Assembly: GCF_056746865.1 (NCBI RefSeq)
Contig: NZ_JBWKMP010000004.1
Source of the DNA: a plasmid
Strand: one strand, 5' to 3'
Length of the DNA: 64,000 nt
Positions within the stretch are counted from its first letter, which is position 1; each line of letters begins with the position of its first letter. Both the position numbers and the translations under genes were made by a program. This document shows positions 19,490-56,189 of this stretch, piece by piece. The notes under the pieces are model-generated. The model was not told where the DNA came from and made no database searches. It saw nothing but the letters and a program-made list of their open reading frames with translations.

Positions 19490-22126
19490 CTACAACGGCA
19501 GGGAGAACGAGGCGGTTTCGAGCGATTCTCCCTCATTCAGCCTGTTCTGCATGTCGCTGACGAAGGCATCCATCTGACTGTTGGCAAAGAATTTAATCCC
19601 GACCAGCCTGACGTCCTCATTTTCATCAATCACAATGCGCTCCCTGTCATTCAGCGTTTCCAGCATCTGCTCTTTCCATGCGTCATCCAGCAGCCGGTCA
19701 TCCCCCTTTGGCTCAAGGAACACCTGCCAGTAAGTGTTGTCCGAATGGCGCGTCAGTATCATGATGAAATCCGGCATAAACCCGCGCACGCCGCCGAACT
19801 CCGTGAGTTTAAAGCGCGTTGACTGCTCGTCGTTACGCAGTACGTAAATGTCGTCGTAACGCGCTTTCAGCTTCGGCATGAATGCTTCCAGCGTTTTCAC
19901 AAGGCGATGCTCAAGCTGGTTCAGTATCGCGTTATCGTACACGTACCATTTTTTACCGATGGTCGGTGCGGTGGTGATTTTCTGGTTAATGACCACCGAC
20001 GGGTCAATGTGCAGGCTGTAGTCTTTAATCACCTCCTTCACCGGCTGGCTGATAAAGCGGTACGTGCCTTTCACCTTCTGGTCATTGCGGCGTATGTTCT
20101 CTGAGATGCGCAGCAGCACAGTTTCCAGCAGGTGCAGTTTCTCTTTTGCCGGTACAGAGGAGAAATCCAGTGACTGCGGTACGGTGACGGTGATTTTTAG
20201 CTTGCCAAGATAGGCGTCACTGCGAATAAACTCACGGATGCCGGTCAGTTTCGGGAAGAAGCGTTGCAGGTTATCCAGCGCGTAGAAGCTGATCCTCTGC
20301 ATCGCCTTGCGGTAAAAACGCTCGTCCAGTACCAGGGGTTCCGGTTTTGTTATGACTGCCGTTGCGCCCGTCAGGTTGTCCAGCGACTCCTCACCGGCGG
20401 TCTGATACGGTATCTCAAAGCGTGTTTCCAGCGAGTAGGTTTCCCAGCGCCGGCTGCTGCTCTCAATCTCTTCCACTTTGTTGAAATACAGCTTACCCGT
20501 CTGATAGACCGTGGATTTCTTGAAGTCTTCTTTCAGTCTGGCGTGTTCAATCGTGCCGCTGCCATCCTGATGCACGTCAATGTCCGCCTGCTCTAATGAT
20601 GCGTGCAGCGTTTTTATATAAGCTGGTTCATTGATGGTGTGATAGTGCAGTTGCTCCAGCACACTCAAATCTTTCGCGCTGTTATCAAACCGGCGGGTGA
20701 AGCTGCGCTTACCGTCATAAACGAACGGGTAGTAACGCGCACCACGCCCGATAAGCTGCGCCTCGCTGTCCGTGCCGGTTTTGCTGCTGCTCGCCTGCTC
20801 GCTGATGCGGACAATGTCGTAGAGGTTGAGCACGTCCCAGCCTTCGTTGACCTTCGCCACGGCAAAGACGGCTCTCACCGGATTATCGATGTTTTCCAGT
20901 GTGTTCAGCAGGACGGGGTTTTCTTCCAGCAGGTCTGACTTGTTGACGTTCAGCAGGTTGAAGTCGTTAAAGTCTTCCTGAATCTGTTGGATAACCGTCA
21001 CTAAATCGCTGTCAGCGTAACGCTGAATCACTTTGTGCCAGATACTGGTGTCAGAGCTGAGCTGTACTCTTTTGTTCGCCAGGTGGCGTCTGACGCTCTC
21101 AGGCGTCATTGCCGCAATCAGTTGCGAAAACTCCTCCTGCTTCGCCTTTGATATCGCAATCTTGTTCGACTTGAACAGAATGACCGGCTTGAAGCCGGTG
21201 ATGCCGTTATCTGCTGCTGTCAGTTTACGGTACTGGCTTAACAGTACCGCATCGAGCATCTTGTCACCGTCATTCTGGTTGGCTTCCAGCAGCATGACTT
21301 TCTTCGAATAGCCGTCTGACATGAACTGCTTCAGGTCATACTGATAAACCACTTTGTCACGGTATTTTTGCCCGATATCTTTATTTGCCAGGTCAATGGT
21401 GGCGGTGAACTCGAACAGCCGGTTATCCGGTCGCAGGTCGAGGATGTTCTCAATCGTGCGTTCCCAGGTCTGCTCCTCGTTCTCCGGTGAGGTTTTCGAC
21501 TTTCCTCTGGCTTTGGTGCCGGCGTTGAAGTGATGCGCCTCGTCACCAAGCAGCACAAGCGGAATTTCCTTCAAATCCTCGTAGGTGATGCTGTTCTCAC
21601 GATAGCTGTTCAGCTCATCGTGCATCTTATGGATGGTTGAGAGCTTAAGGTAAATCGTGTTGCGTTCCGGTACGGACGGGAACGTCTCCACCGGTGCGAT
21701 GGTGATTTTTTCCCCGTCGATTTCCAGCTCCTGACTGAACAGGTACTTCGGCGACTGCGGATTCAGCAGGTTCTCACGGGTTTTCTGGATAATCGCGTCG
21801 GTATGCACGAAGAAGATAAAATTCTGATACCCGTACTCTTTAAACAGATAGAGTATCGTCCCCGCCATCACCATCGTTTTCCCTGCACCGGTTGCCATGT
21901 GAAACAGCAGATGACGGTAATGCAGCAGCGCCTCTTCACGTTTACGCTGCGTGTAATGCAGGTAACGCAGTGCACCGTGCTGATACGGACGCAGGGCATC
22001 CTTCAGATTCGCCTGAATGTAGTCCGGCGTCTGGTAGTTATCGTGGAACAGCCCCGGTTCATCAAATTGCTTCAGCTTGTTAAACAGCAGCTTCTCGCTG
22101 CCGGCTGAGGTCGGTTTCTTCGCCAT
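19490..22126 (-). CDS. res: Type III restriction endonuclease subunit Res (SF2 helicase + nuclease)
   Basis: 878-aa ORF with Walker A (MATGAGKTMV), DEAH box (LLGDEAHH); 4 bp downstream of mod. Confidence 0.85.
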   Translation of the reverse strand: MAKKPTSAGSEKLLFNKLKQFDEPGLFHDNYQTPDYIQANLKDALRPYQHGALRYLHYTQRKREEALLHYRHLLFHMATGAGKTMVMAGTILYLFKEYGYQNFIFFVHTDAIIQKTRENLLNPQSPKYLFSQELEIDGEKITIAPVETFPSVPERNTIYLKLSTIHKMHDELNSYRENSITYEDLKEIPLVLLGDEAHHFNAGTKARGKSKTSPENEEQTWERTIENILDLRPDNRLFEFTATIDLANKDIGQKYRDKVVYQYDLKQFMSDGYSKKVMLLEANQNDGDKMLDAVLLSQYRKLTAADNGITGFKPVILFKSNKIAISKAKQEEFSQLIAAMTPESVRRHLANKRVQLSSDTSIWHKVIQRYADSDLVTVIQQIQEDFNDFNLLNVNKSDLLEENPVLLNTLENIDNPVRAVFAVAKVNEGWDVLNLYDIVRISEQASSSKTGTDSEAQLIGRGARYYPFVYDGKRSFTRRFDNSAKDLSVLEQLHYHTINEPAYIKTLHASLEQADIDVHQDGSGTIEHARLKEDFKKSTVYQTGKLYFNKVEEIESSSRRWETYSLETRFEIPYQTAGEESLDNLTGATAVITKPEPLVLDERFYRKAMQRISFYALDNLQRFFPKLTGIREFIRSDAYLGKLKITVTVPQSLDFSSVPAKEKLHLLETVLLRISENIRRNDQKVKGTYRFISQPVKEVIKDYSLHIDPSVVINQKITTAPTIGKKWYVYDNAILNQLEHRLVKTLEAFMPKLKARYDDIYVLRNDEQSTRFKLTEFGGVRGFMPDFIMILTRHSDNTYWQVFLEPKGDDRLLDDAWKEQMLETLNDRERIVIDENEDVRLVGIKFFANSQMDAFVSDMQNRLNEGESLETASFSLPL

Positions 22127-22130
22127 GCCG

Positions 22131-24179
22131 TCACTCCATTCCGTAGAAGCTGCGGGTAAAGGCTTTATCGCTCTCTGAAATGTTCAGGTCACTGTCATCC
22201 ATATCGGAAGCGTTCACATAGAGCTGATTTTTATCGAGGATTTCAATCAGCAGTTGCTTCTGCTCATGCAGTTCCAGTTCGCTGAAGGCGACTTTACGGA
22301 AAATACCATCCACTTCGTACTCAGCCGACAGCACGTTCTCCAGTGCCACCTGATAGTTGAGATGTGCCTCTGTTTTCATCACGGCAAAGAGCTTTTCGAG
22401 TTCTTCAGTGGACTGCGCTTTCTGTATTTCATGCACAAAGTAGGCGTTCAGCTCCATCAGTTCAGCGTAGACAAAGCTGCCGCCACCCTGCCAGTTGATG
22501 TCTTTTGAGATCCCCCCCTGTTCACCTCCGATGACTTTTTGCAGGCGTGGTACCGTTATGTCGTTGATGTAATCCATCTGTTCAATACCAATGTAGCGAC
22601 GCCCCATCTTATGGGCTACTGCTGCGGTTGTTCCGCTACCTAAATGAAAGTCTAAGATTAAATCGCCTGCCTTTGTAGATAGCTCTATGACCCTTTTAAT
22701 TAACAACTCTGGTTTCTTTCCGTTTTCGAAACTTACATATCCACCTTCTTTATTTAAATTGTTATATTGGATGTCATCCCATAAGGTATTTATTTTCTGC
22801 ATGTAGTTATAACTTTCACCATTTTTCTCCAGCATGTCGGATAGGAACATAAACATATCTTTATTGCTGGCGTTGTAGAATATTTCAACTGGCGTTCCTT
22901 TGTTTTTCCCTTTTAATGGTGTGTACTCTACGCTAACAATGCCATTATTTATTTCTTCTAGTTCTTTTAGAACTCGGCCTCTGACACTGGATTGTGCATT
23001 TGTTGTTCTATAAACAATCCCTGCATAGTCTTTATATACGTCGTTTTCACTTATGCCTTTTTCTTTTGAAAATCTAGATATGGAGGTGGTTTTGGCATAG
23101 GGGTAGTGATTGTAAGTAACTCCATCTTCACTTTTTATGGGCGTTTTTGCACCTAAATCTAAGAGTATTTGAGTGTATTTCCAGCTCTTACCGCTATCCT
23201 TGTATTCATTTACATACTGAATTACCTCTGTTTTTTTGAAAACAGGGTTAAGCATGGCAAGTTCTTTTCTTTTCGAATATAAAATTATAAATTCAGTTGC
23301 ATCTCTTAAGCTTTTTCCTTCCGAGCTTCCAGATACACCACCTATCTTTGTTTTTATTGTTATAATATTGATGAAGTTTTCTACACCAAATATGTTATCC
23401 ATTAACACCTTCAAATGGAATAACTCGTTATCATCACATTGTATAAAAATAAACCCATCATCTGATAATAATTTAAGTGATGTTTCAAGCCTATTTTTCA
23501 TGAATGTTAACCACGTGGAGTGGTTAAATCTATCATTATATTTAAAGCTATCGGAACCAGTGTTATATGGAGGGTCAATATATATTAACTTTACCTCGCC
23601 TTTATGGGGGGTTATTAATGAATTAAGGGCAATTAAGTTATTTCCTTTGATGATTAAATTATCACTTTGATCAAAGTAAGATATATTGTTTTGTGCACCA
23701 TTTTTTGTATGTCGTTTAACATTAGTGAATACCTTTGGAGAGAAAAGTCGATCAATCTCATCACGAGCAATGATTTCATTGTAATAAATCTCATCTTTCC
23801 CCTGATTTTCTTTGGTCATTCCGCCTTCAAGAACACAATCCTTAAAAGGAAAGTCCAGCACCACATCAGAGCTGTAATCAAGGTATTTCCCTTCACTGGT
23901 TAATCCCACCTTGTTCCGGTATTTAGTGAAGCTGTTCGCCCAGTATTCTTTGTATTTAAGAAATTTGCATAAATTATCAAAATCAAAAATAAAAATTCCG
24001 TCTATATCCGTACCGTAAACAGCGCGGATTTTTTCATTCGCCACCAATGCCTTGATAAGGTCTGGCTGCTTTTGACTGATAGCGTCACTCACCATTGAAC
24101 GTTGTAATTCCTCTCCGTTCCAGAACTGCGGGAATGCTTTTAAAACCTTGTTAAGTTCTTTTATTAATTCTGTCTGCAT
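22131..24179 (-). CDS. mod: Type III DNA methyltransferase subunit Mod
   Basis: 682-aa ORF with DPPYN motif (LIYIDPPYNTGSD) and C-terminal AdoMet motif (FHLGSGTTAAVA); strongly AT-rich central segment (likely target-recognition domain). Confidence 0.85.
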   Translation of the reverse strand: MQTELIKELNKVLKAFPQFWNGEELQRSMVSDAISQKQPDLIKALVANEKIRAVYGTDIDGIFIFDFDNLCKFLKYKEYWANSFTKYRNKVGLTSEGKYLDYSSDVVLDFPFKDCVLEGGMTKENQGKDEIYYNEIIARDEIDRLFSPKVFTNVKRHTKNGAQNNISYFDQSDNLIIKGNNLIALNSLITPHKGEVKLIYIDPPYNTGSDSFKYNDRFNHSTWLTFMKNRLETSLKLLSDDGFIFIQCDDNELFHLKVLMDNIFGVENFINIITIKTKIGGVSGSSEGKSLRDATEFIILYSKRKELAMLNPVFKKTEVIQYVNEYKDSGKSWKYTQILLDLGAKTPIKSEDGVTYNHYPYAKTTSISRFSKEKGISENDVYKDYAGIVYRTTNAQSSVRGRVLKELEEINNGIVSVEYTPLKGKNKGTPVEIFYNASNKDMFMFLSDMLEKNGESYNYMQKINTLWDDIQYNNLNKEGGYVSFENGKKPELLIKRVIELSTKAGDLILDFHLGSGTTAAVAHKMGRRYIGIEQMDYINDITVPRLQKVIGGEQGGISKDINWQGGGSFVYAELMELNAYFVHEIQKAQSTEELEKLFAVMKTEAHLNYQVALENVLSAEYEVDGIFRKVAFSELELHEQKQLLIEILDKNQLYVNASDMDDSDLNISESDKAFTRSFYGME

Positions 24180-24365
24180 GTCATGACCTTATGACTGTTT
24201 AATATCTGAATGATTGTAAGATATAGCGTCCGGCGCTGGAACCCGACAGCGATGAGTTGAATTCAGTTGCGGGAAAATGCACCAGAATAAGTGGTATTTA
24301 ACATAAACTCTCTTACGCGCACCACCCGAACACCACTCACCACGAAAACACGCCGGAACACGTAA

Positions 24366-24442
24366 AAGGGGTCCGTTTGGGAAACGGACAATATTGTACG
24401 GCAAGCCTGTTTTTTGAACAGGCCAAATCATCGCAGTAGGGT
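24366..24442. repeat. 77-bp hairpin-containing segment (copy X) upstream of mod
   Basis: AAGGGGTCCGTTTGGGAAACGGACAATATTGTACGGCAAGCCTGTTTTTTGAACAGG...; inverted copy at 26891-26966. Confidence 0.8.
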
Positions 24443-24631
24443 ACGCCCTTTGTAGGTGCCGTCTTCGATGTGAGAAAGAGCGTCCAGCGATACCAGGCCC
24501 GAGAACAGCGTGAACTGCCGCAATGAGCTTTTGTATGCGTGGGTAACTATACCGCGCACTTCACGCGCGGTGCTCGGTTTTGAGGCCGAAAATTGCAGGA
24601 TCTCAAAGACGTGGTGTAGGGCTAGTGCCAT
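24428..24631 (-). CDS. small hypothetical protein (67 aa)
   Basis: ORF with AAGGA 6 nt upstream of ATG; last gene downstream of the uncharacterised cluster; no recognisable motif. Confidence 0.3.
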   Translation of the reverse strand: MALALHHVFEILQFSASKPSTAREVRGIVTHAYKSSLRQFTLFSGLVSLDALSHIEDGTYKGRTLLR

Positions 24632-24673
24632 GGGGCGTCCTTAAAATAAAGCCCCATAGCATGAGCAGTGTCG

Positions 24674-25081
24674 TTAGTCGTTAAACTCGCCATCTCGCAG
24701 TTGGCGATTGCCTTCAACAATTTCCCACGCACGATTTAACCCTTCACGCATCAGATCGAAAGTACAGTCGCGGTCGTTAGAATAGGCGCCGACAAAAATG
24801 ATGTATTCCATTTCAGGTTCGCCGAACTCAGGCGAGCAGCCAAAGTTATGGAAAGCCGCCTGCCATTTGCCATTGTTCTCATTCGGCATGTGGAAAAGCT
24901 GCATTGGACGCTCATTAGGTGAGAATTCTACAAAGCTCGCTGAACTACCTGCGGATAAGCCTACTCTGGAATGCCCATCAAAAAAGTAATTATGGGCACA
25001 TCTGATACCTTCCACATAGATCACCCGCCCATCTGGCAGCTTTTTCAGGACCAGGTACACTTCACGACGCTGAATACTCAT
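24674..25081 (-). CDS. hypothetical cytoplasmic protein (135 aa)
   Basis: ORF with AGGAA RBS 5 nt upstream of ATG; no signal peptide; no family recognised. Confidence 0.5.
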   Translation of the reverse strand: MSIQRREVYLVLKKLPDGRVIYVEGIRCAHNYFFDGHSRVGLSAGSSASFVEFSPNERPMQLFHMPNENNGKWQAAFHNFGCSPEFGEPEMEYIIFVGAYSNDRDCTFDLMREGLNRAWEIVEGNRQLRDGEFND

Positions 25082-25152
25082 TTTTATTCCTGTAGTTATG
25101 GGTAGCAGTGGAGAGTAAGAATGACCCCAGCCGGTGCCAAGGCCAAAGAACT

Positions 25153-25695
25153 TTAGCCAGCCAGGGAAAGGGCTTCTGCGATGGCTCGGTTGAACTCGGG
25201 GATCGCCTCATCGTAAGACATTCCGCCGCAGGGATGCTTGACGCAAGCCCATGTTACCGGCAGTTCCGGTAAGTGATCCCACATCTGATAGCCCAACACC
25301 AAAATGACATCGGGCCTCAGCTCGGCCACCACTTCTTCAAGCACAGTAGCTGCATCACGCCACATAGCACGCGTGGGACGTATACGGCCAGCATCGCCCA
25401 CAAACTCCTGAACGTAGTTGTAGAAGGCTACATGCTGCCAGGCTTCACGCCGTTCCTCTGCGGTCGGCTCGTCAGTTGTGCCTCGTAGCAGATTGGTGGC
25501 TATCGTGAAAAAACGAAGCCCTGGCTGGAAAGCATGCTCGTTAATAACGTGCTGGGTAAAGTCAGGGGCGTAGTCTTCCGGTTCACCATAGTGGGACTCA
25601 CCCAACACCATAACGCGGACGCCGTAGCGGCTTGAGTGATAATGGTCACCCACCCAAGGCTGAAATTTCACGCTGGAATTAGTTGCTGTTTGCAT
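25153..25695 (-). CDS. hypothetical protein with uracil-DNA-glycosylase-superfamily-like motifs (180 aa)
   Basis: N-terminal VMVLGESHYGEP resembles the UDG water-activating loop (GQDPYH) and C-terminal VKHPCGGMS resembles the HPSPLS motif; start overlaps upstream gene by 17 bp. Confidence 0.45.
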   Translation of the reverse strand: MQTATNSSVKFQPWVGDHYHSSRYGVRVMVLGESHYGEPEDYAPDFTQHVINEHAFQPGLRFFTIATNLLRGTTDEPTAEERREAWQHVAFYNYVQEFVGDAGRIRPTRAMWRDAATVLEEVVAELRPDVILVLGYQMWDHLPELPVTWACVKHPCGGMSYDEAIPEFNRAIAEALSLAG

Positions 25696-26128
25696 ACGTT
25701 ACATTCTCACACTTTGCATCACTGATGGGCATGGACGCATTATAAATATCCTCAAGTGCCAACGTTACCTCGCTTTTGCGCAAGATGGCGTCCCGCAGCA
25801 TCGTCAATCGGAAGTTAGAGCCTTTCCAGTAATACTCTTTGTACTTGTCATCTGCGACGAAACCGCCTTCTCGATGGCGTTCATACACGATAGGTGGCAT
25901 GCCCCCTTTGTCGGACGGGTGAAGCTCCAGCCAACGCTCATATTTTCCGTTCTCGTAGATTGTCAGCCGCTGCGCTGGGTCGGTCAACTTACCCCCGTCC
26001 AGCACCCACCGGCACATCATTGACGCTATTTCTTTTGCTGCGGGATCTATGGTTGATGGGGTGCCAGCATTAGCCTGGTAGGCCATAAGAAACGCCGCGG
26101 ACATAATGAGTGTGTGGCGTAGTTTCAT
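25679..26128 (-). CDS. hypothetical exported protein (149 aa, Sec signal peptide)
   Basis: N-terminus MKLRHTLIMSAAFLMAYQANA; AAGGGA RBS; 10 bp after upstream lipoprotein gene. Confidence 0.55.
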   Translation of the reverse strand: MKLRHTLIMSAAFLMAYQANAGTPSTIDPAAKEIASMMCRWVLDGGKLTDPAQRLTIYENGKYERWLELHPSDKGGMPPIVYERHREGGFVADDKYKEYYWKGSNFRLTMLRDAILRKSEVTLALEDIYNASMPISDAKCENVTYANSN

Positions 26129-26138
26129 GAGAGATCCC

Positions 26139-26678
26139 TTAGTTCAGATTGCATCCAATGCGGAAGGCATTGCCGATTTCAGTGTATTCAGCACGGCTTG
26201 CGCCCGTGAGCTTAGTGGCTTCACTGCTGAAGTGCGTATTGTCGCGGGTGCATTTTTCTGGCGTGGATTGCGCGCCTTTGAGGCACATAGAGTACGCAAC
26301 AGACGGATTAGCGAACTGGGTACGCTGGGCGTAGCCTTCGCACACAGCAGTTGCACGGGCCTGCTTCTGGCGCGCGGTCATCGGTTTGATTGCCTTACTA
26401 TTGGCAGCCTTCAGCTTATAGCAGCTCAGATTACGCGAGCGGGCAGCTGCCTCTAGGGCTTTTGAGCGGCTAAGATTGTCGTTGTATTCAGGATGGCTGG
26501 ATGGGTTAACATTCAGGCTCGGCTGTATCGCGTCAGATGCCTGGCAAAGTTGCTGATCGCTGTATCTGGCAATCTCCGCTGCCTCTATCGCGGCTTTGTC
26601 TGGATGCGGGGCTTTGGGTGCGGGAGTAGCGCATCCTGCTAATGCCAGCGCCAATGAGGCGGCTAATAGTCGTTTCAT
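26139..26678 (-). CDS. hypothetical lipoprotein (179 aa, lipobox LAGC, multiple Cys)
   Basis: MKRLLAASLALALAGCATPA... signal with lipobox; several cysteines suggesting periplasmic disulfides. Confidence 0.55.
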   Translation of the reverse strand: MKRLLAASLALALAGCATPAPKAPHPDKAAIEAAEIARYSDQQLCQASDAIQPSLNVNPSSHPEYNDNLSRSKALEAAARSRNLSCYKLKAANSKAIKPMTARQKQARATAVCEGYAQRTQFANPSVAYSMCLKGAQSTPEKCTRDNTHFSSEATKLTGASRAEYTEIGNAFRIGCNLN

Positions 26679-26890
26679 GGGTTCGAGTGCCCTGTATGCA
26701 AGTTGTAGAAGGGATCAGTTTAGAGATCGGAAATTATTGTACGTTCAGCGCGGTATTTAACCACTAATACCCGTAACGGATTGATTTAGAGCCAGTGGCT
26801 ATCGCTTTTAAATTATCGCCTAATCAGTATCGCATTTAGGTTATCCGATTAGCCAAAAACCGCGGAAAACGTCGTATAGCGCGGGAGTTC

Positions 26891-26966
26891 ACCCTACTGC
26901 GATGATTTCGACTGTTCAAAAAACAGGCTTACCGTACAATATTGTCCGTTTCCCAAACGGCCCCTT
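26891..26966. repeat. inverted copy (X') of the 77-bp hairpin segment
   Basis: reverse complement of 24366-24442 with a few mismatches. Confidence 0.8.
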
Positions 26967-27040
26967 AAATCTTCTCCGCTCCAAAATTGCGGAAACGCTT
27001 TTAAAACCTTGTTCAGTTCTTTGATTAATTCGGTCTGCAT
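26966..27040 (-). pseudogene. partial duplicate of mod 5' end (first ~22 codons) with diverged copy of mod promoter region upstream (27041-27240)
   Basis: encodes MQTELIKELNKVLKAFPQFW identical to Mod N-terminus, then fuses to X'-derived sequence (48-codon frame 26894-27040); upstream 200 bp is ~80% identical to 24180-24365. Confidence 0.7.
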
Positions 27041-27325
27041 GTCATGGCCTTATGACTGTTAGAGATTGAAATGATTGTAAGGTATCGCGTCCAATGCTGG
27101 AACCTGACAGTAATGCTGCTGATACAATTGCGGAAAAATGCACCAAAACAGGTGGTATTTAACATAAGGGATCTTACGCGCACCACCGATCAGGTACTCA
27201 CGACGAAAACACGTCAAAACGCGCAAAACAGCCTGTTTTCTGCCCCCAAAATTGGCTGTTTTTGTGTTGCCGGTTTGTTATCAAAACGACGGATATGATT
27301 TCAGCCAGCAAACGGGCTGAAACCT

Positions 27326-27775
27326 CTATTTTTTCCAGAATTTCCATGATTTTTTCACCATCGGCTGCGTGACAGGTTCTGGTGTTGCCGGTAGCTTGGA
27401 CTCTATCAGTAACAGGGCTTGCTTGAGATCCTCGTTGCGCTTGTCTTTTTCAGCGAGTAGGAGTTCTTTTTCACGCAGCAATGCCTTTACGAGTTCTATT
27501 TCAGCTTTTAAAGCATAGTTTTCATGCAGCAAATTCTGGTCAGTTAACTGTACGGATTCTCCTGCCAAACTCTGCACAGTGCTGCCTGATTGTTCACTGC
27601 CAAGTTGCTGACCAGTAAATGATCCGAAAACACGCAGAAGCTCTGATGTATCTAGCTTTGAAGAACCACTGCTATCTGTGCACTTGGTCAGTTTTCCCTG
27701 CTTAATGTATGACTGCACTGTTGTGCGACTTTTTCCTGTCAGTCTTGCGGCTTCGCTGATTGATACCAGTGCCAT
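27326..27775 (-). CDS. hypothetical HTH DNA-binding protein with C-terminal coiled coil (149 aa)
   Basis: N-terminal SISEAARLTGKSRTTVQSYIKQGKL helix-turn-helix-like; function unknown. Confidence 0.45.
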   Translation of the reverse strand: MALVSISEAARLTGKSRTTVQSYIKQGKLTKCTDSSGSSKLDTSELLRVFGSFTGQQLGSEQSGSTVQSLAGESVQLTDQNLLHENYALKAEIELVKALLREKELLLAEKDKRNEDLKQALLLIESKLPATPEPVTQPMVKKSWKFWKK

Positions 27776-27782
27776 AGATACC

Positions 27783-28022
27783 TCAGAACCGTCCGTATTT
27801 AGCTAAAATTTTCTCTAGCGTGGCTCGTTGTTTTTGGGTCAGCCATGTAAATGAGTCGTTGAGATCGTGCTTGCTTTGCATATCGCTTAGAAATTTAGCC
27901 TCAAAGCTAGTGAGCTGGATTTTTGCGGTCAGTGCATCGTGTAGTGTCTTTTTAAGACCGTTATGCAATTGACTGTCTTGCGTGCTGTTTGTCACCGGAA
28001 TGGGCGTTCTTGTTGTTTTTTC
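27783..28022 (-). pseudogene. 3' end of an unidentified gene truncated by IS26
   Basis: frame runs into the IS26 IR at 28023 without a start codon; ends ...QKQRATLEKILAKYGRF. Confidence 0.35.
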
Positions 28023-28842
28023 GGCACTGTTGCAAATAGTCGGTGGTGATAAACTTATCATCCCCTTTTGCTGATGGAGCTGCACATGAACCCATTCAAA
28101 GGCCGGCATTTTCAGCGTGACATCATTCTGTGGGCCGTACGCTGGTACTGCAAATACGGCATCAGTTACCGTGAGCTGCAGGAGATGCTGGCTGAACGCG
28201 GAGTGAATGTCGATCACTCCACGATTTACCGCTGGGTTCAGCGTTATGCGCCTGAAATGGAAAAACGGCTGCGCTGGTACTGGCGTAACCCTTCCGATCT
28301 TTGCCCGTGGCACATGGATGAAACCTACGTGAAGGTCAATGGCCGCTGGGCGTATCTGTACCGGGCCGTCGACAGCCGGGGCCGCACTGTCGATTTTTAT
28401 CTCTCCTCCCGTCGTAACAGCAAAGCTGCATACCGGTTTCTGGGTAAAATCCTCAACAACGTGAAGAAGTGGCAGATCCCGCGATTCATCAACACGGATA
28501 AAGCGCCCGCCTATGGTCGCGCGCTTGCTCTGCTCAAACGCGAAGGCCGGTGCCCGTCTGACGTTGAACACCGACAGATTAAGTACCGGAACAACGTGAT
28601 TGAATGCGATCATGGCAAACTGAAACGGATAATCGGCGCCACGCTGGGATTTAAATCCATGAAGACGGCTTACGCCACCATCAAAGGTATTGAGGTGATG
28701 CGTGCACTACGCAAAGGCCAGGCCTCAGCATTTTATTATGGTGATCCCCTGGGCGAAATGCGCCTGGTAAGCAGAGTTTTTGAAATGTAAGGCCTTTGAA
28801 TAAGACAAAAGGCTGCCTCATCGCTAACTTTGCAACAGTGCC
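28023..28842 (+). mobile_element. IS26 (copy 2)
   Basis: 820 bp with GGCACTGTTGCAAA IRs. Confidence 0.95.
28086..28790 (+). CDS. tnpA: IS26 transposase Tnp26
   Basis: 234-aa [10 protein letters not shown]... Confidence 0.95.
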   Translation: MNPFKGRHFQRDIILWAVRWYCKYGISYRELQEMLAERGVNVDHSTIYRWVQRYAPEMEKRLRWYWRNPSDLCPWHMDETYVKVNGRWAYLYRAVDSRGRTVDFYLSSRRNSKAAYRFLGKILNNVKKWQIPRFINTDKAPAYGRALALLKREGRCPSDVEHRQIKYRNNVIECDHGKLKRIIGATLGFKSMKTAYATIKGIEVMRALRKGQASAFYYGDPLGEMRLVSRVFEM

Positions 28843-34926: not shown

Positions 34927-35746
34927 GGCACTGTTGCAAAGTTAGCGATGAGGCAGCCTTTTGTCTTATTCAAAGGCCTTACATTTCAAAAACTCTGCTT
35001 ACCAGGCGCATTTCGCCCAGGGGATCACCATAATAAAATGCTGAGGCCTGGCCTTTGCGTAGTGCACGCATCACCTCAATACCTTTGATGGTGGCGTAAG
35101 CCGTCTTCATGGATTTAAATCCCAGCGTGGCGCCGATTATCCGTTTCAGTTTGCCATGATCGCATTCAATCACGTTGTTCCGGTACTTAATCTGTCGGTG
35201 TTCAACGTCAGACGGGCACCGGCCTTCGCGTTTGAGCAGAGCAAGCGCGCGACCATAGGCGGGCGCTTTATCCGTGTTGATGAATCGCGGGATCTGCCAC
35301 TTCTTCACGTTGTTGAGGATTTTACCCAGAAACCGGTATGCAGCTTTGCTGTTACGACGGGAGGAGAGATAAAAATCGACAGTGCGGCCCCGGCTGTCGA
35401 CGGCCCGGTACAGATACGCCCAGCGGCCATTGACCTTCACGTAGGTTTCATCCATGTGCCACGGGCAAAGATCGGAAGGGTTACGCCAGTACCAGCGCAG
35501 CCGTTTTTCCATTTCAGGCGCATAACGCTGAACCCAGCGGTAAATCGTGGAGTGATCGACATTCACTCCGCGTTCAGCCAGCATCTCCTGCAGCTCACGG
35601 TAACTGATGCCGTATTTGCAGTACCAGCGTACGGCCCACAGAATGATGTCACGCTGAAAATGCCGGCCTTTGAATGGGTTCATGTGCAGCTCCATCAGCA
35701 AAAGGGGATGATAAGTTTATCACCACCGACTATTTGCAACAGTGCC
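34927..35746 (-). mobile_element. IS26 (copy 4)
   Basis: 820 bp with IS26 IRs. Confidence 0.95.
34979..35683 (-). CDS. tnpA: IS26 transposase Tnp26
   Basis: 234-aa [10 protein letters not shown]... Confidence 0.95.
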
Positions 35747-35829
35747 TCTCAAAATCGGTGGAGCTGCATGACAAAGTCATCGGGCATTATCTGAACATAA
35801 AACACTATCAATAAGTTGGAGTCATTACC
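35747..35829 (+). mobile_element. IS1, 3' terminal 83 bp (end of insB + IRR)
   Basis: TCTCAAAATCGGTGGAGCTGCATGACAAAGTCATCGGGCATTATCTGAACATAAAACACTATCAATAAGTTGGAGTCATTACC matches IS1 right end. Confidence 0.8.
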
Positions 35830-36330
35830 AAACAGGGATTATTTATTCTCTCAGGCGAGAATAAAATAGACGAAGAATGTTTCATTAATATAGTCCAAAC
35901 GGCTGTCGCCATAAATAACATCGGTAGAGAATCTAATGGTTATATTTTAGTTGGTGTTTCCGATACCAAAGCTACGGCAGACAGAGTTAAGACTTTATAT
36001 GGTGTTACCCCTATTGAGTGCAATGGCTATTATATCAATGGAATTGATCATGAAGCTGTAATTCAATCAAAAAACATAGATAATTACTTTCTGTTCATAA
36101 AACAAAAAATAGAATCATTTAATTTTAATGAGGCTTTGAAACAACAAATACTAAAAGATATTTCATTATGTTCATATGAAGGACTGCATGTTTTAAAAAT
36201 CGAAATAAAAAGTGTCGGAGAAGTCTGTCATTTTGAAAATAGGTATTATATAAGACAAGGAACAGCTACGCATTTAATCACTGACGGTGAAGCAATTAGT
36301 AGTTTACACAGATTATATTACTCATAATTA
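35813..36330 (+). pseudogene. fragment of a gene encoding an AlbA_2/Schlafen-like (divergent AAA) domain protein, N-terminally truncated at the IS1 end
   Basis: open frame with no ATG until late; motif NGYILVGVSDTKATADRV resembles the GGxLxxGVxDxG core of AlbA_2 domains; AT-rich. Confidence 0.3.
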
Positions 36331-37371
36331 CTTAAGCACTATGAAGGTATCATACACCTTCATAGTGTACTTTTTTACTGCGCTTTGGGGCTAAATTGTT
36401 TTTGTGAATAGCCAGAATATCGTGGCTACGGCGGCAATGGAAATATATGATCTCTGCTGCCAGAGACTGGAGATGTAATTGGGGGCAGTTTGGATATCGA
36501 AAATTATTGTACTATAAGGGGTCCGCTTGAGGGGGCCGCTTGGAAAACGGAAATTTTCCCACGCTAAGAGAATTGAGTTGAACGAGTGGTTACATCTAGG
36601 CCAGCTAACTCACTGAACGTAAAGGCTGTACGAAATGTTCCGACCGTCCGATAACCATTTGGCTTACTTCCGTACATTTCCTTGCGTAGATGTACAGAAT
36701 TGTACGATTTCGGACACCAAAACTGCTGTTGTCCCGGTGCATGAAGCTACTTTCCGGGTTGGTGGTACTGACTTTGGTGTTCTTAACGACGACGTTTTCA
36801 ACTCTGAAAATCGCCTCTCTGCACGGGGATTTTTACCCCCCCATAGAGCCGTCATATAAATTCAAATTATTAACTTTGATGGTAGAATTATCTTAGGTTT
36901 GATAAAATTTTGAGCCGTCGCCGTTTACTTCACAGGATTCAATATAATGGCTAAATATACAGTTTGTGATTACCAATAAACTATTAGAAATAATGGGAAT
37001 GGTTGTGCCAATCTCTATCTGGAGGTCTTATTGCAGGGAACATCCACCCCATCGTTACACCAATACAGAATTGCCCCCGATACAAGACATCCAGACATTA
37101 ACCTAATAAAAGCGCACCTTGACGAGGGCTTTCAGCAGGCAAAGTCTGAGGGATTAAAAGTAGAGATTTCAGATTATAAAGAACGTCTTTACCTGTACAT
37201 TAGAACACCTGGTAATAACCTAATGCAATATTCTGGTTGCAGAGAAAAATAATACAGTCGCGCTGGATACGCTGACATTGACGCAGTTATATGATTTTCT
37301 GGCGTTGGTCAGTAAACCAGCTGCAGCCAAAACGGTGTAGTCCCTGACACAGGCGCCGGTCATTCTGTTAA

Positions 37372-37497
37372 CTCATCCACGTATGGGATGAACAGTTGTT
37401 TCAGTTTGAAACCAGGGATGTCAGACGGATTTTTGCTGGCGAGTACGAAATCCGTTACGAACTTAATGGCCAGACTATTTATGTATTGCGCCTGTGA
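37372..37497 (+). pseudogene. RelE/ParE-like toxin C-terminal remnant
   Basis: LIHVWDEQLFQFETRDVRRIFAGEYEIRYELNGQTIYVLRL resembles the C-terminal beta-strands of RelE/ParE toxins; in-frame stop immediately upstream. Confidence 0.3.
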
Positions 37498-37624
37498 CAC
37501 ACACGAGAAAACAGGTAGATTGTGTGTGAGGGCAACTTTAACATAGCCTGCAGGTGTTAATTCAGGAGCATTGTTATCAGACCAAATATTTTTCATTCCA
37601 TTAAATAGTCTTGTAGGGGATAAA

Positions 37625-37906
37625 ATGAATTACGATGAAATAACGAAAATCACTGCAGAACGTATTAGCGACTACATGACTGAAGCGGTTAATACAGACT
37701 CTAAATCTGTTGCGGAAATGTTTCATAACGCTGCATGGGGAGTGCTATCATTGTGGTTTGAACTCGTCACAAAAATAGATCTGGATATACATAAAAAGAA
37801 CAGGTATGCAAGTTATGATTTTAGAAGAAAAATCGAAATGCAGCATGAAGAGTTTCAGAAAATGACAGAGCGTGAGCAAGTGCCTTTATTGAAATTGCCT
37901 GAATAA
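37625..37906 (+). CDS. hypothetical protein (93 aa)
   Basis: ATG at 37625 within track ORF 37571-37906 ([22 protein letters not shown]...). Confidence 0.35.
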
Positions 37907-38028
37907 CAGAGACAGTGCAAACGATTATTTCATAATAACGATTATGTAATGACTGGTAAGAAAATAACTTGATTGAGTTCCCTTTATCCAGCCTGATAGT
38001 GGATAAAGGGAACTCAATAATAATTGAA

Positions 38029-54691: not shown

Positions 54692-55201
54692 TTAATTTTT
54701 CTGCACACTGTTAATTTGGGAAAGTGATTTCTTCGTGGTCGGAACCCGGATGCCTTTACTGCTCTTTATCCAGGTATAAATCCGGTAAACCTCTGATGCG
54801 TAGGCAAGACGTCTCTGGTTCTGGCGTTCGGTCTTCCTGAATCCGGCATTGTATGCACCAACGGCCTCCCAGGAGACGCCCCATTTTTTAAAGGCTATTG
54901 CCAGATAATAAGCACCGGTATAAATGTTCATACAGGGATCTGTTGTCAGATGTTCCGGCTTAATTCCATAGCGGGCCAGTTCGTTAAAATGCTGGGAATC
55001 TACCTGCATCAGTCCGCTGCCATATCCCGTTACCGGATTAATACCGATGGCATTAACCCGGTAACGGGATTCTTTCCATGATATCGCTCTCAGTAAATCC
55101 GGGTCTATTTTGTAATCCCGACCTGCAAGATCAAAGCAATCGGCGGCTTCGCAGATCCCATTTATAAACATCAGGCAGATTGCTAACATCCATTTTTTCA
55201 T
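54692..55201 (-). CDS. lytic transglycosylase (F orf169-like)
   Basis: 169-aa with signal peptide [19 protein letters not shown]; track ORF extends spuriously upstream across oriT. Confidence 0.8.
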
Positions 55202-55239
55202 TTTTCCACCTCTGGTGACTTTATCCGTAAATAATTTAA

Positions 55240-55560
55240 CCCACTCCACAAAAAGGCTCAACAGGTTGGTGGTTCTCACCACCAAAAGCACCACACCCCA
55301 CGCAAAAACAAGTTTTTGCTGATTTGCTTTTTGAATCATTAGCTTATGTTTTAAATAATGTATTTTAATTTATTTTACATTATTAAATAGGGGCGTTGAC
55401 GACCCTATGGCGACCCTATGGCGACCCTTGTTAGGGTCAGTACTGACAAATTTTATGAAAAACATTTGGATATATTAGGGCCGCCCCTAGCAGCGCCGTG
55501 CGTTTTTTTATAGTATGCCCCTAGGGGCGCTGCTAGGGGTGCTCTTCTTTTTTCAGACCA
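55240..55560. promoter_or_regulatory. oriT: oriT region (nic region and TraM/TraY binding repeats)
   Basis: GGTGTGGTGCTTTTGGTGGTGAGAACCACCAACC-like nic region on reverse complement near 55255-55300; direct repeats GACCCTATGGC x2 and palindrome CCCCTAGCAGCGC...GCGCTGCTAGGGG at 55400-55540; upstream of traM. Confidence 0.65.
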
Positions 55561-55615
55561 AACTATGAGTAAATGAAATAAAACACTTGTTTCAGAATAT
55601 AAAAGGTACTGTCTT

Positions 55616-55999
55616 ATGGCCAGAGTAAATCTGTATATCAGTAATGAGGTTCATGAAAAAATTAACATGATTGTTGAAAAGCGTCGTCAGGAGGGAGCAA
55701 GAGATAAAGATATAAGCCTTTCAGGAACTGCTTCAATGCTTCTTGAATTGGGGCTTCGCGTATATGATGCACAGATGGAGCGTAAAGAGTCTGCGTTTAA
55801 CCAGACAGAGTTTAATAAACTTCTTCTTGAATGTGTTGTAAAAACACAGTCAACGGTGGCAAAGATTTTAGGTATTGAGTCTCTCAGTCCTCATGTCTCC
55901 GGAAACCCGAAGTTTGAATATGCCAGTATGGTTGACGATATCAGAGAGAAAGTGTCTGTTGAGATGGACCGGTTTTTTCCAAAAAATGATGATGAATAA
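55616..55999 (+). CDS. traM: relaxosome protein TraM
   Basis: 127-aa MARVNLYISNEVHEKINMIVEKRRQEGARDKDISLSG... Confidence 0.9.
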   Translation: MARVNLYISNEVHEKINMIVEKRRQEGARDKDISLSGTASMLLELGLRVYDAQMERKESAFNQTEFNKLLLECVVKTQSTVAKILGIESLSPHVSGNPKFEYASMVDDIREKVSVEMDRFFPKNDDE

Positions 56000-56189
56000 A
56001 TGAAAATGAAGTTTGAGTTGGTTCAAATATAAGAATTTTTATGATTCAAAAAGATGACAATACGTCAGATAATTAGTATATTAATTACGTGGTTAATGCC
56101 ACGTTAAAAATTGAAACTGAAAATCGCCGATGCAGGGAGGTCTGAACTCCCTGCATCGACTGTCCATAGAATCCTTAACGGAGGTTCCT

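Follow-up and report, generated by a model that had tools for sequence, protein, structure and literature searches.

An apparently intact Type III restriction-modification operon with a mosaic mod gene, captured from a small plasmid, in an IncFII resistance plasmid

The window analyzed here is a stretch of 64,000 nucleotides of plasmid DNA (contig NZ_JBWKMP010000004.1 of the RefSeq assembly GCF_056746865.1), and its coordinates are the same as in the IncFII resistance plasmid p2019XSD11-92. On the minus strand of this window lie the two genes that together form a restriction-modification (R-M) system of Type III. The mod gene (22131–24179) is an open reading frame (ORF) of 682 amino acids (aa) encoding a Type III N6-adenine methyltransferase of the beta class, and the res gene (19490–22126) is an ORF of 878 aa encoding the Type III restriction subunit, in which a superfamily 2 (SF2) helicase/ATPase is followed by a C-terminal PD-ExK nuclease. 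The TGA codon of mod (22131–22133) is separated by a 4-bp gap, CGGC, from the ATG codon of res at 22126, and a GGAG sequence is placed 7 nt 5′ of this ATG. Because of the GGAG and the short gap, translational coupling is plausible, and mod and res are probably coupled in this way.

All of the defining Type III features that can be examined from sequence or fold are present. In Mod, the motif order is DPPY (motif IV, aa 202–205), a variable block (aa ~266–487), and then FxGxG, with motif I being DFHLGSGTT (aa 510–518). In an alignment of 22 Mod sequences, D202, P204, G514, S515, and T517 are invariant and P203, Y205, F511, and G516 are nearly so. Res has MATGxGKT (Walker A, aa 77–84), DEAHH (aa 195–199), and QLIGRGxR (motif VI, aa 457–464), whose specified positions are invariant among 19 Res homologues down to 30% identity, together with a TAT sequence (aa 241–243) of which A242 and T243 are invariant and T241 is nearly invariant. 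P785-D786 and E805-P806-K807 of the nuclease motif are also invariant among the 19 homologues; the C-terminal PD-(D/E)xK motif is thus complete, and catalysis is predicted. Profile searches agree with these assignments: Pfam finds N6_N4_Mtase (aa 196–541, E 2e-47) and TypeIII_RM_meth (PF12564; aa 39–93, E 2.4e-15) in Mod and ResIII (aa 44–244, E 1.5e-26) in Res, and PADLOC assigns Mod to MTase_III (E 1.1e-251) and Res to REase_III (PDLC03651; E 1.3e-240). A preliminary description of this DNA, made from the letters alone, had claimed a canonical mod-then-res order with products of 682 and 878 aa and a 4-bp gap, a DPPY motif, a Walker A motif, and a DEAH box; the ORFs are exactly as claimed, and the key positions of the motifs are conserved across homologues.

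The prototype of Type III enzymes, EcoP15I/EcoP1I (structure 4ZCF), has the same mod-then-res order, a beta-class Mod forming N6-methyladenine (m6A) with DPPY, a central recognition domain, and FxGxG, and a Res with SF2 helicase motifs and a C-terminal PD…ExK. The D-to-E spacing in EcoP15I Res is 18 residues, the same as in the Res of the window. In a single-sequence search against PDB sequences, Mod matches the Type III Mods 6k0w (E 5.7e-26), 4zcf_A (E 1.2e-22), and also 7dsu, the matches being the EcoP15I, Helicobacter pylori, and Mbo45V Mod structures. Res matches no PDB structure in the same kind of search, and a profile built from Res homologues matches only EcoP15I Res (4zcf_C, E 1.8e-5). 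When the AlphaFold2 model of Res, with a mean predicted local distance difference test score (pLDDT) of 80, is compared with the PDB, EcoP15I Res is the top fold match (E 9.4e-11). With a pLDDT of 62.6 and low values in the recognition domain, the Mod model is only moderately reliable and was used for an overall fold match only, in which Type III Mods rank first. EcoP15I Res and Mod are therefore the best or joint-best matches among solved structures, but they are very distant from the proteins of the window, and the similarity of Mod is confined to the catalytic motifs. Indeed, Res scores 31 bits against the NCBIfam equivalog of Type III endonucleases, far under the cut-off of 564, so that the system is a distant, not a close, relative of EcoP15I. 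The annotation of the operon by the NCBI pipeline (PGAP) is generic only.

Neither gene has a frameshift. The ratio of nonsynonymous to synonymous divergence (dN/dS) is low wherever the genes can be aligned, ~0.06 in res and 0.05–0.12 in the ends of mod, and res and both ends of mod are thus under purifying selection. Taken together, the operon has the look of an intact, canonical two-gene Type III R-M system that is probably functional. Directly 3′ of res, the terminator scan finds a strong, terminator-like hairpin followed by a T-run on the minus strand (19448–19474), which is kept in three related loci (L002, L005, and L079; loci of relatives are given L numbers here); DNA homology with the first two of them, both ColE1-type relatives, begins at 19443, near the hairpin. 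A consensus promoter scan upstream of mod gave nothing useful, and no RNA family was found by an Rfam scan of 17800–28100. Tandem Repeats Finder detects no simple-sequence repeat in mod, which is therefore not a phase-variable gene of the modA type.

The base composition changes sharply inside mod. Against a window mean of 0.527, res has a GC content of 0.523 and mod one of 0.380, with values at third codon positions (GC3) of 0.694 and 0.403, respectively. In 300-bp windows, GC drops to 0.29–0.36 over ~22650–24000 and lies at 0.49–0.55 in res and at 0.45–0.57 in the downstream flank and in the upstream flank past ~24300. A change-point analysis of GC3 along mod and res places the break after mod codon 533, at window position 22580, with 0.345 before and 0.682 after it, and the log-likelihood ratio of 81.4 compares with a maximum of 9.1 among 500 codon shuffles. 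The preliminary description was therefore right in calling mod far more AT-rich than res and the flanks. The contrast sits at synonymous sites, GC3 being ~0.34 in mod codons 1–533, ~0.6 in codons 534–682, and 0.69 in res, and the low-GC stretch (aa 1–533) exceeds the recognition domain (aa ~266–487). No other 1.5-kb stretch of the window has a GC content as low as this part of mod; as a side observation, 1.5-kb windows with GC below 0.40 are also found at ~35500–38000, near parM/stability genes, and at ~55000–56000 in the plasmid backbone.

When mod is compared with its relatives, it falls into segments of different ancestry. The 5′ part (aa 1–132; 23784–24179) has a GC3 of ~0.36–0.50 and is 94% identical in amino acid sequence to the closest relative, L002. 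The central low-GC cassette (aa 133–533; 22581–23783) has a GC3 of ~0.32 and contains the codons for DPPY (23565–23576) and motif I (22626–22652), between which lies the target-recognition domain (aa ~266–487; 22719–23384), an allele-specific block that cannot be aligned among four alleles. The 3′ part (aa 534–682; 22131–22580), with a GC3 of ~0.6, is 92–93% identical in amino acid sequence to the related plasmids. At the DNA level, relatives match res and the 3′ end of mod up to ~22660 (81–90% identity) and the 5′ end of mod from ~23425 (75–83%), and across ~22660–23425 there is no DNA match to four relatives, which comprise ColE1/Rop-type plasmids of 6.8 kb, an IncK2/Z plasmid, and MOBQ plasmids. 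In the protein alignment, the four alleles have four distinct recognition domains between conserved N- and C-termini.

The same segments emerge from synonymous divergence, expressed as the proportion of synonymous differences (Nei-Gojobori) between the window and L002. This proportion is ~0.33 along the whole length of res and 0.32 in mod aa 1–66, rises to 0.44 in aa 67–132, 0.68 in aa 133–198, and 0.89 in aa 199–264, is ~0.75 and saturated in the recognition domain, and falls again to 0.66 in aa 463–528 and 0.52–0.53 in aa 529–660. An independent pair, Proteus terrae and L021, gives the same profile, with the peak over aa 133–528 in both pairs. Furthermore, the nearest relatives change from segment to segment. 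For aa 1–132 and aa 534–682 they are the related plasmids (94% and 93% identity, respectively), while for aa 133–265 the nearest is Orbus (77%), ahead of the top members of the plasmid clade, L078 (75%) and L002 (73%). For the recognition domain it is Pasteurella langaaensis (L014; 62%), whose Res is 30% and whose Mod N-terminus is 33% identical to those of the window; a comparison of the nearest relatives of the Mod central domain and of Res, as had been proposed for this operon, thus finds that they differ. Relatives of the recognition domain in metagenomes reach 50–56% identity, two of them sitting in unrelated contexts.

These results support the view that the central ~400 codons of mod are an exchangeable cassette whose genealogy is far older than that of res, and that both ends of mod travel with res. 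Because the first ~132 and the last ~150 codons co-diverge with res, the mod gene as a whole was not replaced. The suggestion of the preliminary description that the target-recognition region or the whole mod allele had been acquired separately from res therefore stands for the recognition region, for which both the divergence peak and the segment-wise relatives speak, and fails for the whole gene.

The relatives with closely similar Res proteins form a clade whose usual carriers are small multicopy plasmids in Enterobacterales and to which belong the operons of pSNE1-1926, pZ1323SSL0011-3, pCF2206-5, pRHB28-C20_2, and the IncK2/Z plasmid pF16EC0186-1, as well as those on small contigs of Proteus, Providencia, Xenorhabdus, and Yersinia. 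Their res genes are 80–91% identical to that of the window at the nucleotide level and up to 95% identical to one another. The plasmid operons share the GC step with the window, as do the small contigs, but the former differ in having a recognition domain of their own each, and therefore presumably a different target sequence, and in their backbones, which are of ColE1/Rop, MOBQ (rep_cluster_1787), or IncK type. Among relatives with Res at least 85% identical, the GC3 step is present in all nine, and the six whose Mods were aligned each have a different recognition domain. The step is also found in every species-representative genome at this level of Res identity, those of Xenorhabdus, Proteus, Providencia, Yersinia nurmii, Serratia rubidaea, and an Erwinia metagenome-assembled genome (MAG), in which GC3 is 0.26–0.36 in the N-terminal part of mod, 0.23–0.41 in the recognition domain, 0.47–0.59 in the C-terminal part, and 0.54–0.66 in res. 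In the next clade out (Res 67–68% identical: Gilliamella, Orbus, Wohlfahrtiimonas, and a Bartonella MAG) there is no step, GC being low in both genes, and homologues with Res at most 68% identical in general likewise lack the step and mostly have a GC3 of 0.15–0.45 across mod and res.

Since the step is present in all of the relatives with Res at least 85% identical and absent from the next clade out, it is ancestral to the enterobacterial plasmid clade; and since it is common to all of these relatives, composition alone gives no proof of a recent swap. Compared with the wider family, which occurs mostly in low-GC bacteria, it is rather res and the 3′ end of mod that appear as the GC-enriched part. 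Two of the relatives deserve a remark. L051, on the chromosome of S. rubidaea NCTC12971 (530488–542484), has a Res of ~90% identity and keeps the GC step despite its high-GC genome, with frameshifts in both mod and res. L021 is an 8.7-kb contig (JAHEOB010000391.1) of a cyanobacterial MAG labelled Halothece sp.; its res gene is 95% identical at the nucleotide level to that of P. terrae, and the contig probably represents a small enterobacterial plasmid that was assigned to this MAG by a binning error.

A mosaic of this kind has a well-known precedent. For modA in Neisseria and Haemophilus, Gawthorne et al. (2012; PMC3311624) described alleles in which both gene ends are conserved and the recognition domain between them has a lower GC and moves en bloc from one allele or species to another; a mosaic, low-GC recognition domain is therefore a known phenomenon. 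The Mod of the window resembles these phasevarion Mods in its conserved gene ends and highly variable central recognition domain of lower GC, and also in its N-terminal LKYKEYW and DFPFKDC motifs, with 33–37% identity to ModA-type proteins of Neisseria and Pasteurellaceae over aa 1–133. It differs from them in that mod has no repeat tract, that res is intact, that the operon is plasmid-borne, and that the low-GC region extends over the conserved N-terminal half of mod. The mosaic structure of mod is thus real, follows the pattern known for this enzyme class, and is in itself fairly ordinary.

The operon is part of a small-plasmid segment of MOBQ origin (18042–28022) that contains truncated mobA, mobX, res, mod, a helix-turn-helix (HTH) gene, and truncated rep, with a 2861-bp insert within it. 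Its left boundary is a 212-bp end fragment of IS26 (17830–18041; terminal repeat 17830–17843), directly after which, at 18042, the small-plasmid homology begins. Its right boundary is a complete IS26 on the plus strand (28023–28842; transposase gene 28086–28790), with terminal repeats at 28023 and 28842, which interrupts the rep gene of the small plasmid. The ORF fragment in the left IS26 end encodes the C-terminus of Tnp26, and this transposase remnant lies on the strand opposite to the complete right IS26; a pseudo-compound transposon or translocatable unit would have two IS26 copies in direct orientation. A free form of the segment is likely represented by p2017.10.01CC_3 (NZ_AP027803.1), a 9396-bp MOBQ plasmid of Escherichia coli from Viet Nam, which is 99.8% identical to the window over 18042–24367 and identical over 27172–28022. 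For Mod, Res, MobX, and the HTH protein, its accessions are those of the window, and its operon differs by one nucleotide; the plasmid is complete, rep, traD, and mobA being intact, and has neither the 2861-bp insert nor the IS26 junctions. The gene order of the segment is also that of the 9.4-kb MOBQ plasmids pCF2206-5 and pRHB28-C20_2. By these comparisons, the resistance region of the IncFII plasmid has captured 7.1 kb of a 9.4-kb MOBQ plasmid, which now lies between IS26 sequences, and because IS26 cuts the segment at both sides, the R-M system is a passenger of the captured small plasmid.

The surroundings hold nine IS26 end sequences and the resistance genes floR, tet(A), strAB, sul2, fosA3, and blaCTX-M-55, in agreement with the earlier statement that an intact Type III system lies in an IS26 resistance island. 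In PLSDB, 100 plasmids from E. coli, Salmonella, Klebsiella, and Citrobacter carry the 4690-bp operon with an identity of at least 99%. Among 5426 complete E. coli genomes, 95 contain a match, and 81 records (~1.5%) reach 99% identity or more. It has spread clonally with the IncFII resistance plasmid. Left of the segment, two details point to a complicated history of the junction: the 212-bp IS26 end is joined, at an internal IS26 position, to truncated mobA, and a fragment of a Tn3-family transposase gene with 65% GC (16064–17842) adjoins it. The region 16064–18041 is a layered junction from several successive events.

The overall reading is, then, that of an apparently intact Type III operon of captured small-plasmid origin, whose mod gene is a mosaic with an exchanged central cassette; we give this reading a probability of roughly 0.8. 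We infer the activity and the mode of cleavage by analogy with EcoP15I: Mod would recognize a short asymmetric site via its central domain and methylate one strand, and Res would bind Mod and cut unmethylated incoming DNA; Type III cleavage depends on ATP and takes place ~25–27 bp from one of two unmethylated asymmetric sites in inverse orientation. In this reading, a res-linked “chassis,” made of mod codons 1–132 and 534–682 and of res, flanks the cassette of codons ~133–533, for which homologous recombination has brought in alleles from a deep pool. The pool is shared with low-GC bacteria (Pasteurellaceae, Orbaceae, and others), and the cassette is AT-rich for this reason. The GC step is older than the diversification of the clade. 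The direction and timing of the exchanges are likewise inferred; for the GC-poor 5′ 132 codons, the most economical reading would be that the clade began long ago as a chimera and that its cassettes were swapped repeatedly thereafter.

Several points weigh against it. No donor of the recognition domain closer than 62% has been found: the best match among 5.8 billion proteins, identical E. coli copies aside, is at most 56% identical, and a tblastn search of the domain against plasmids gives at most 50%. The 5′ 132 codons of mod share the history of res but stay GC-poor, so that simple amelioration of the chassis cannot explain the whole pattern. Differences in composition between segments can bias Nei-Gojobori synonymous distances, and the rank order of relatives is broadly alike for the N-terminal segment of mod and for res; part of the excess divergence could therefore be due to rate variation and not to recombination. 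The literature searched holds no description of this mod-res system, and a study of avian E. coli with comparable resistance genes, whose methylomes were read by nanopore sequencing, reported no Type III-like motif, though it could not be linked to this plasmid. Lastly, copies of the operon that are interrupted by IS3 or IS1 or shortened occur in NZ_CP034107.1 (H58) and in H78, H80, and H84–H86, and since the resistance region persists with them, the system is dispensable and sometimes lost.

These damaged copies are also in line with an alternative in which the system no longer restricts and is either a passenger or a solitary methylase acting as an epigenetic regulator, comparable to phasevarion modA with an inactive res. 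The clonal hitch-hiking with resistance genes and the ModA-like N-terminal 133 aa would fit such a role, but neither ORF is shortened, all catalytic residues are conserved, the low dN/dS of res speaks for its maintenance by purifying selection, and mod has no simple-sequence repeat for phase variation. We regard this alternative as unlikely, though it survives better than the others.

A slightly less probable explanation is that the low GC of mod codons 1–533 is held by selection, for example because this part is bound by H-NS or slowly translated and thereby tunes the expression of Mod and Res in a new host. It has in its favor that the low GC is stable throughout the clade, not excepting the first 132 codons, whose history is that of res, and persists in hosts of very different GC, including the S. 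rubidaea chromosome. However, distant homologues (Res 28–68% identical), mostly from low-GC genomes, are low in GC in both mod and res, so that a low GC belongs to the family from its origin and is no special feature of mod, and neither the divergence peak nor the segment-wise change of nearest relatives would be explained by selection on composition. The third alternative is that mod or its recognition region was brought in recently, apart from res, on this resistance plasmid, with AT-richness as the fresh signature; the sharp GC3 step and a second, divergent mod start (promoter and 25 codons) 2.86 kb upstream, at first sight a displaced allele, seem to favor it, but it is largely refuted and very improbable, because the free 9.4-kb plasmid has the same operon, all relatives of the clade have the step, the ends of mod co-diverge with res, the shortened copy is foreign and carried by the 2861-bp element while the intact mod is resident, and the plasmids searched include none that combines a res of at least 99% identity with a different mod.

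This element is associated with two dif-like Xer sites, the only two in the window, with none in shuffled sequences. The first, on the minus strand at 24296–24323, 116 bp upstream of the start of mod, is the resident site of the small plasmid; its sequence, GGTGCGCGTAA-GAGAGT-TTATGTTAAAT, is one mismatch from the arms of E. coli dif. The second (27157–27184, minus strand), with the central region GATCCC, is a direct repeat 2861 bp further upstream. Similar Xer sites occur at the equivalent position in L002, L003, L005, and L078 and 108–109 bp upstream of mod in L008, L009, and L021, that is, just upstream of mod in most members of the clade, and the homology of the window to L002 and L005 stops exactly at the outer edge of the Xer site. 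The hairpin after res was also considered as a second Xer site for its loose 11-6-11 geometry, but it has no similarity to Xer arms and was rejected.

The integrated element itself (24313–27173, minus strand) is 2861 bp long and comprises a foreign mod stump, 74-nt inverted repeats, five ORFs, and a 44-bp foreign flank. The free plasmid has one Xer site, and the window differs from it at the insert sites only at 26969–27171 and 24327–24363, which places the switch between resident and foreign sequence at the border of XerC arm and central region in both sites. Integration of a 2861-bp circle by XerC-side strand exchange would be expected to leave just such a reciprocal product. Both flanks differ between the copies, which had raised doubt about Xer integration; this doubt is lifted, as the differences from the free plasmid are exactly reciprocal. 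The two central regions have the same two bases beside the XerC arm and four different ones beside the XerD arm, a pattern also reported for VGJphi-type integration (PMC5357621). Integrative mobile elements exploiting Xer recombination (IMEX), such as VGJphi, and the pdif modules of Acinetobacter share with this element the 28-bp sites of 11-6-11 organization and the switch at the core. It differs from them in that it sits in the dif-like site belonging to a small plasmid of Enterobacterales, that its cargo is five ORFs inside 74-nt inverted repeats, and that its Xer dependence is putative.

The mod stump (26966–27040, minus strand) is 75 bp long and consists of the first 25 codons of another mod allele with its promoter region. 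It is 82% identical to the functional mod, nearer to that of pCF2206-5, and ends abruptly at a 74-nt inverted repeat. By comparison with the free plasmid, in which the intact mod is resident, the stump is the 5′ end of the mod of another R-M plasmid, brought in with the insert, and the idea that it is a displaced resident allele was discarded. The 74-nt inverted repeats (24369–24442 and 26891–26964), which are 95% complementary, enclose a 2.45-kb block of five co-oriented ORFs on the minus strand (24428–24631, 24674–25081, 25153–25695, 25679–26128, and 26139–26678), upstream of and co-oriented with mod and res. No transposase and no clear target-site duplication are seen around the repeats. 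The five ORFs have no NCBIfam, PHROG, or PADLOC match; of the two searched against Pfam, the one of 180 aa has a weak match to the uracil-DNA-glycosylase (UDG) superfamily (E 0.014) and the one of 135 aa has none, and two of the five resemble exported proteins or lipoproteins. A 235-bp non-coding stretch of the insert (26706–26941) is found with 80–85% identity in ~950 plasmids and is never annotated; a Rop-type plasmid of 2.6 kb has it ~190 bp from rop and a Klebsiella plasmid between rmtC and blaNDM-1, and it may be a putative transfer or maintenance site of ColE1 type.

It is conceivable, as a tentative idea that we hold to be doubtful, that the Xer site ~110 bp upstream of mod is a hot spot which, beyond resolving multimers, moves whole modules between unrelated plasmid backbones. 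This idea is based on two observations: a 4.9-kb unit of Xer site, mod, res, and hairpin is common to ColE1/Rop-type and MOBQ-type plasmids, with homology ending at the Xer core, and the window keeps the apparent product of reciprocal XerC-side integration with five genes and a mod stump. If it is true, Type III R-M cassettes and specificity modules would spread in the manner of pdif modules or IMEX outside Acinetobacter and Vibrio. For the exchange of modules among small enterobacterial plasmids, the insert at the Xer site is a small extra lead.

The system travels with fosA3 and blaCTX-M-55 on epidemic plasmids of the IncFII type. An active system could hold off phages and rival plasmids that enter the cell and could mark the DNA of its hosts with a methylation motif specific to the plasmid, which would matter for phage therapy, for the host range of the plasmid, and for tracking based on methylomes; the effects on phage susceptibility and plasmid host range proposed earlier are plausible if the system is active. 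For R-M genes in general, a GC step does not date an event, as the step common to the whole clade makes clear. The operon is a clear example of how the specificity of Type III enzymes evolves, by a conserved res-linked chassis and an exchangeable low-GC cassette, a principle established for modA.

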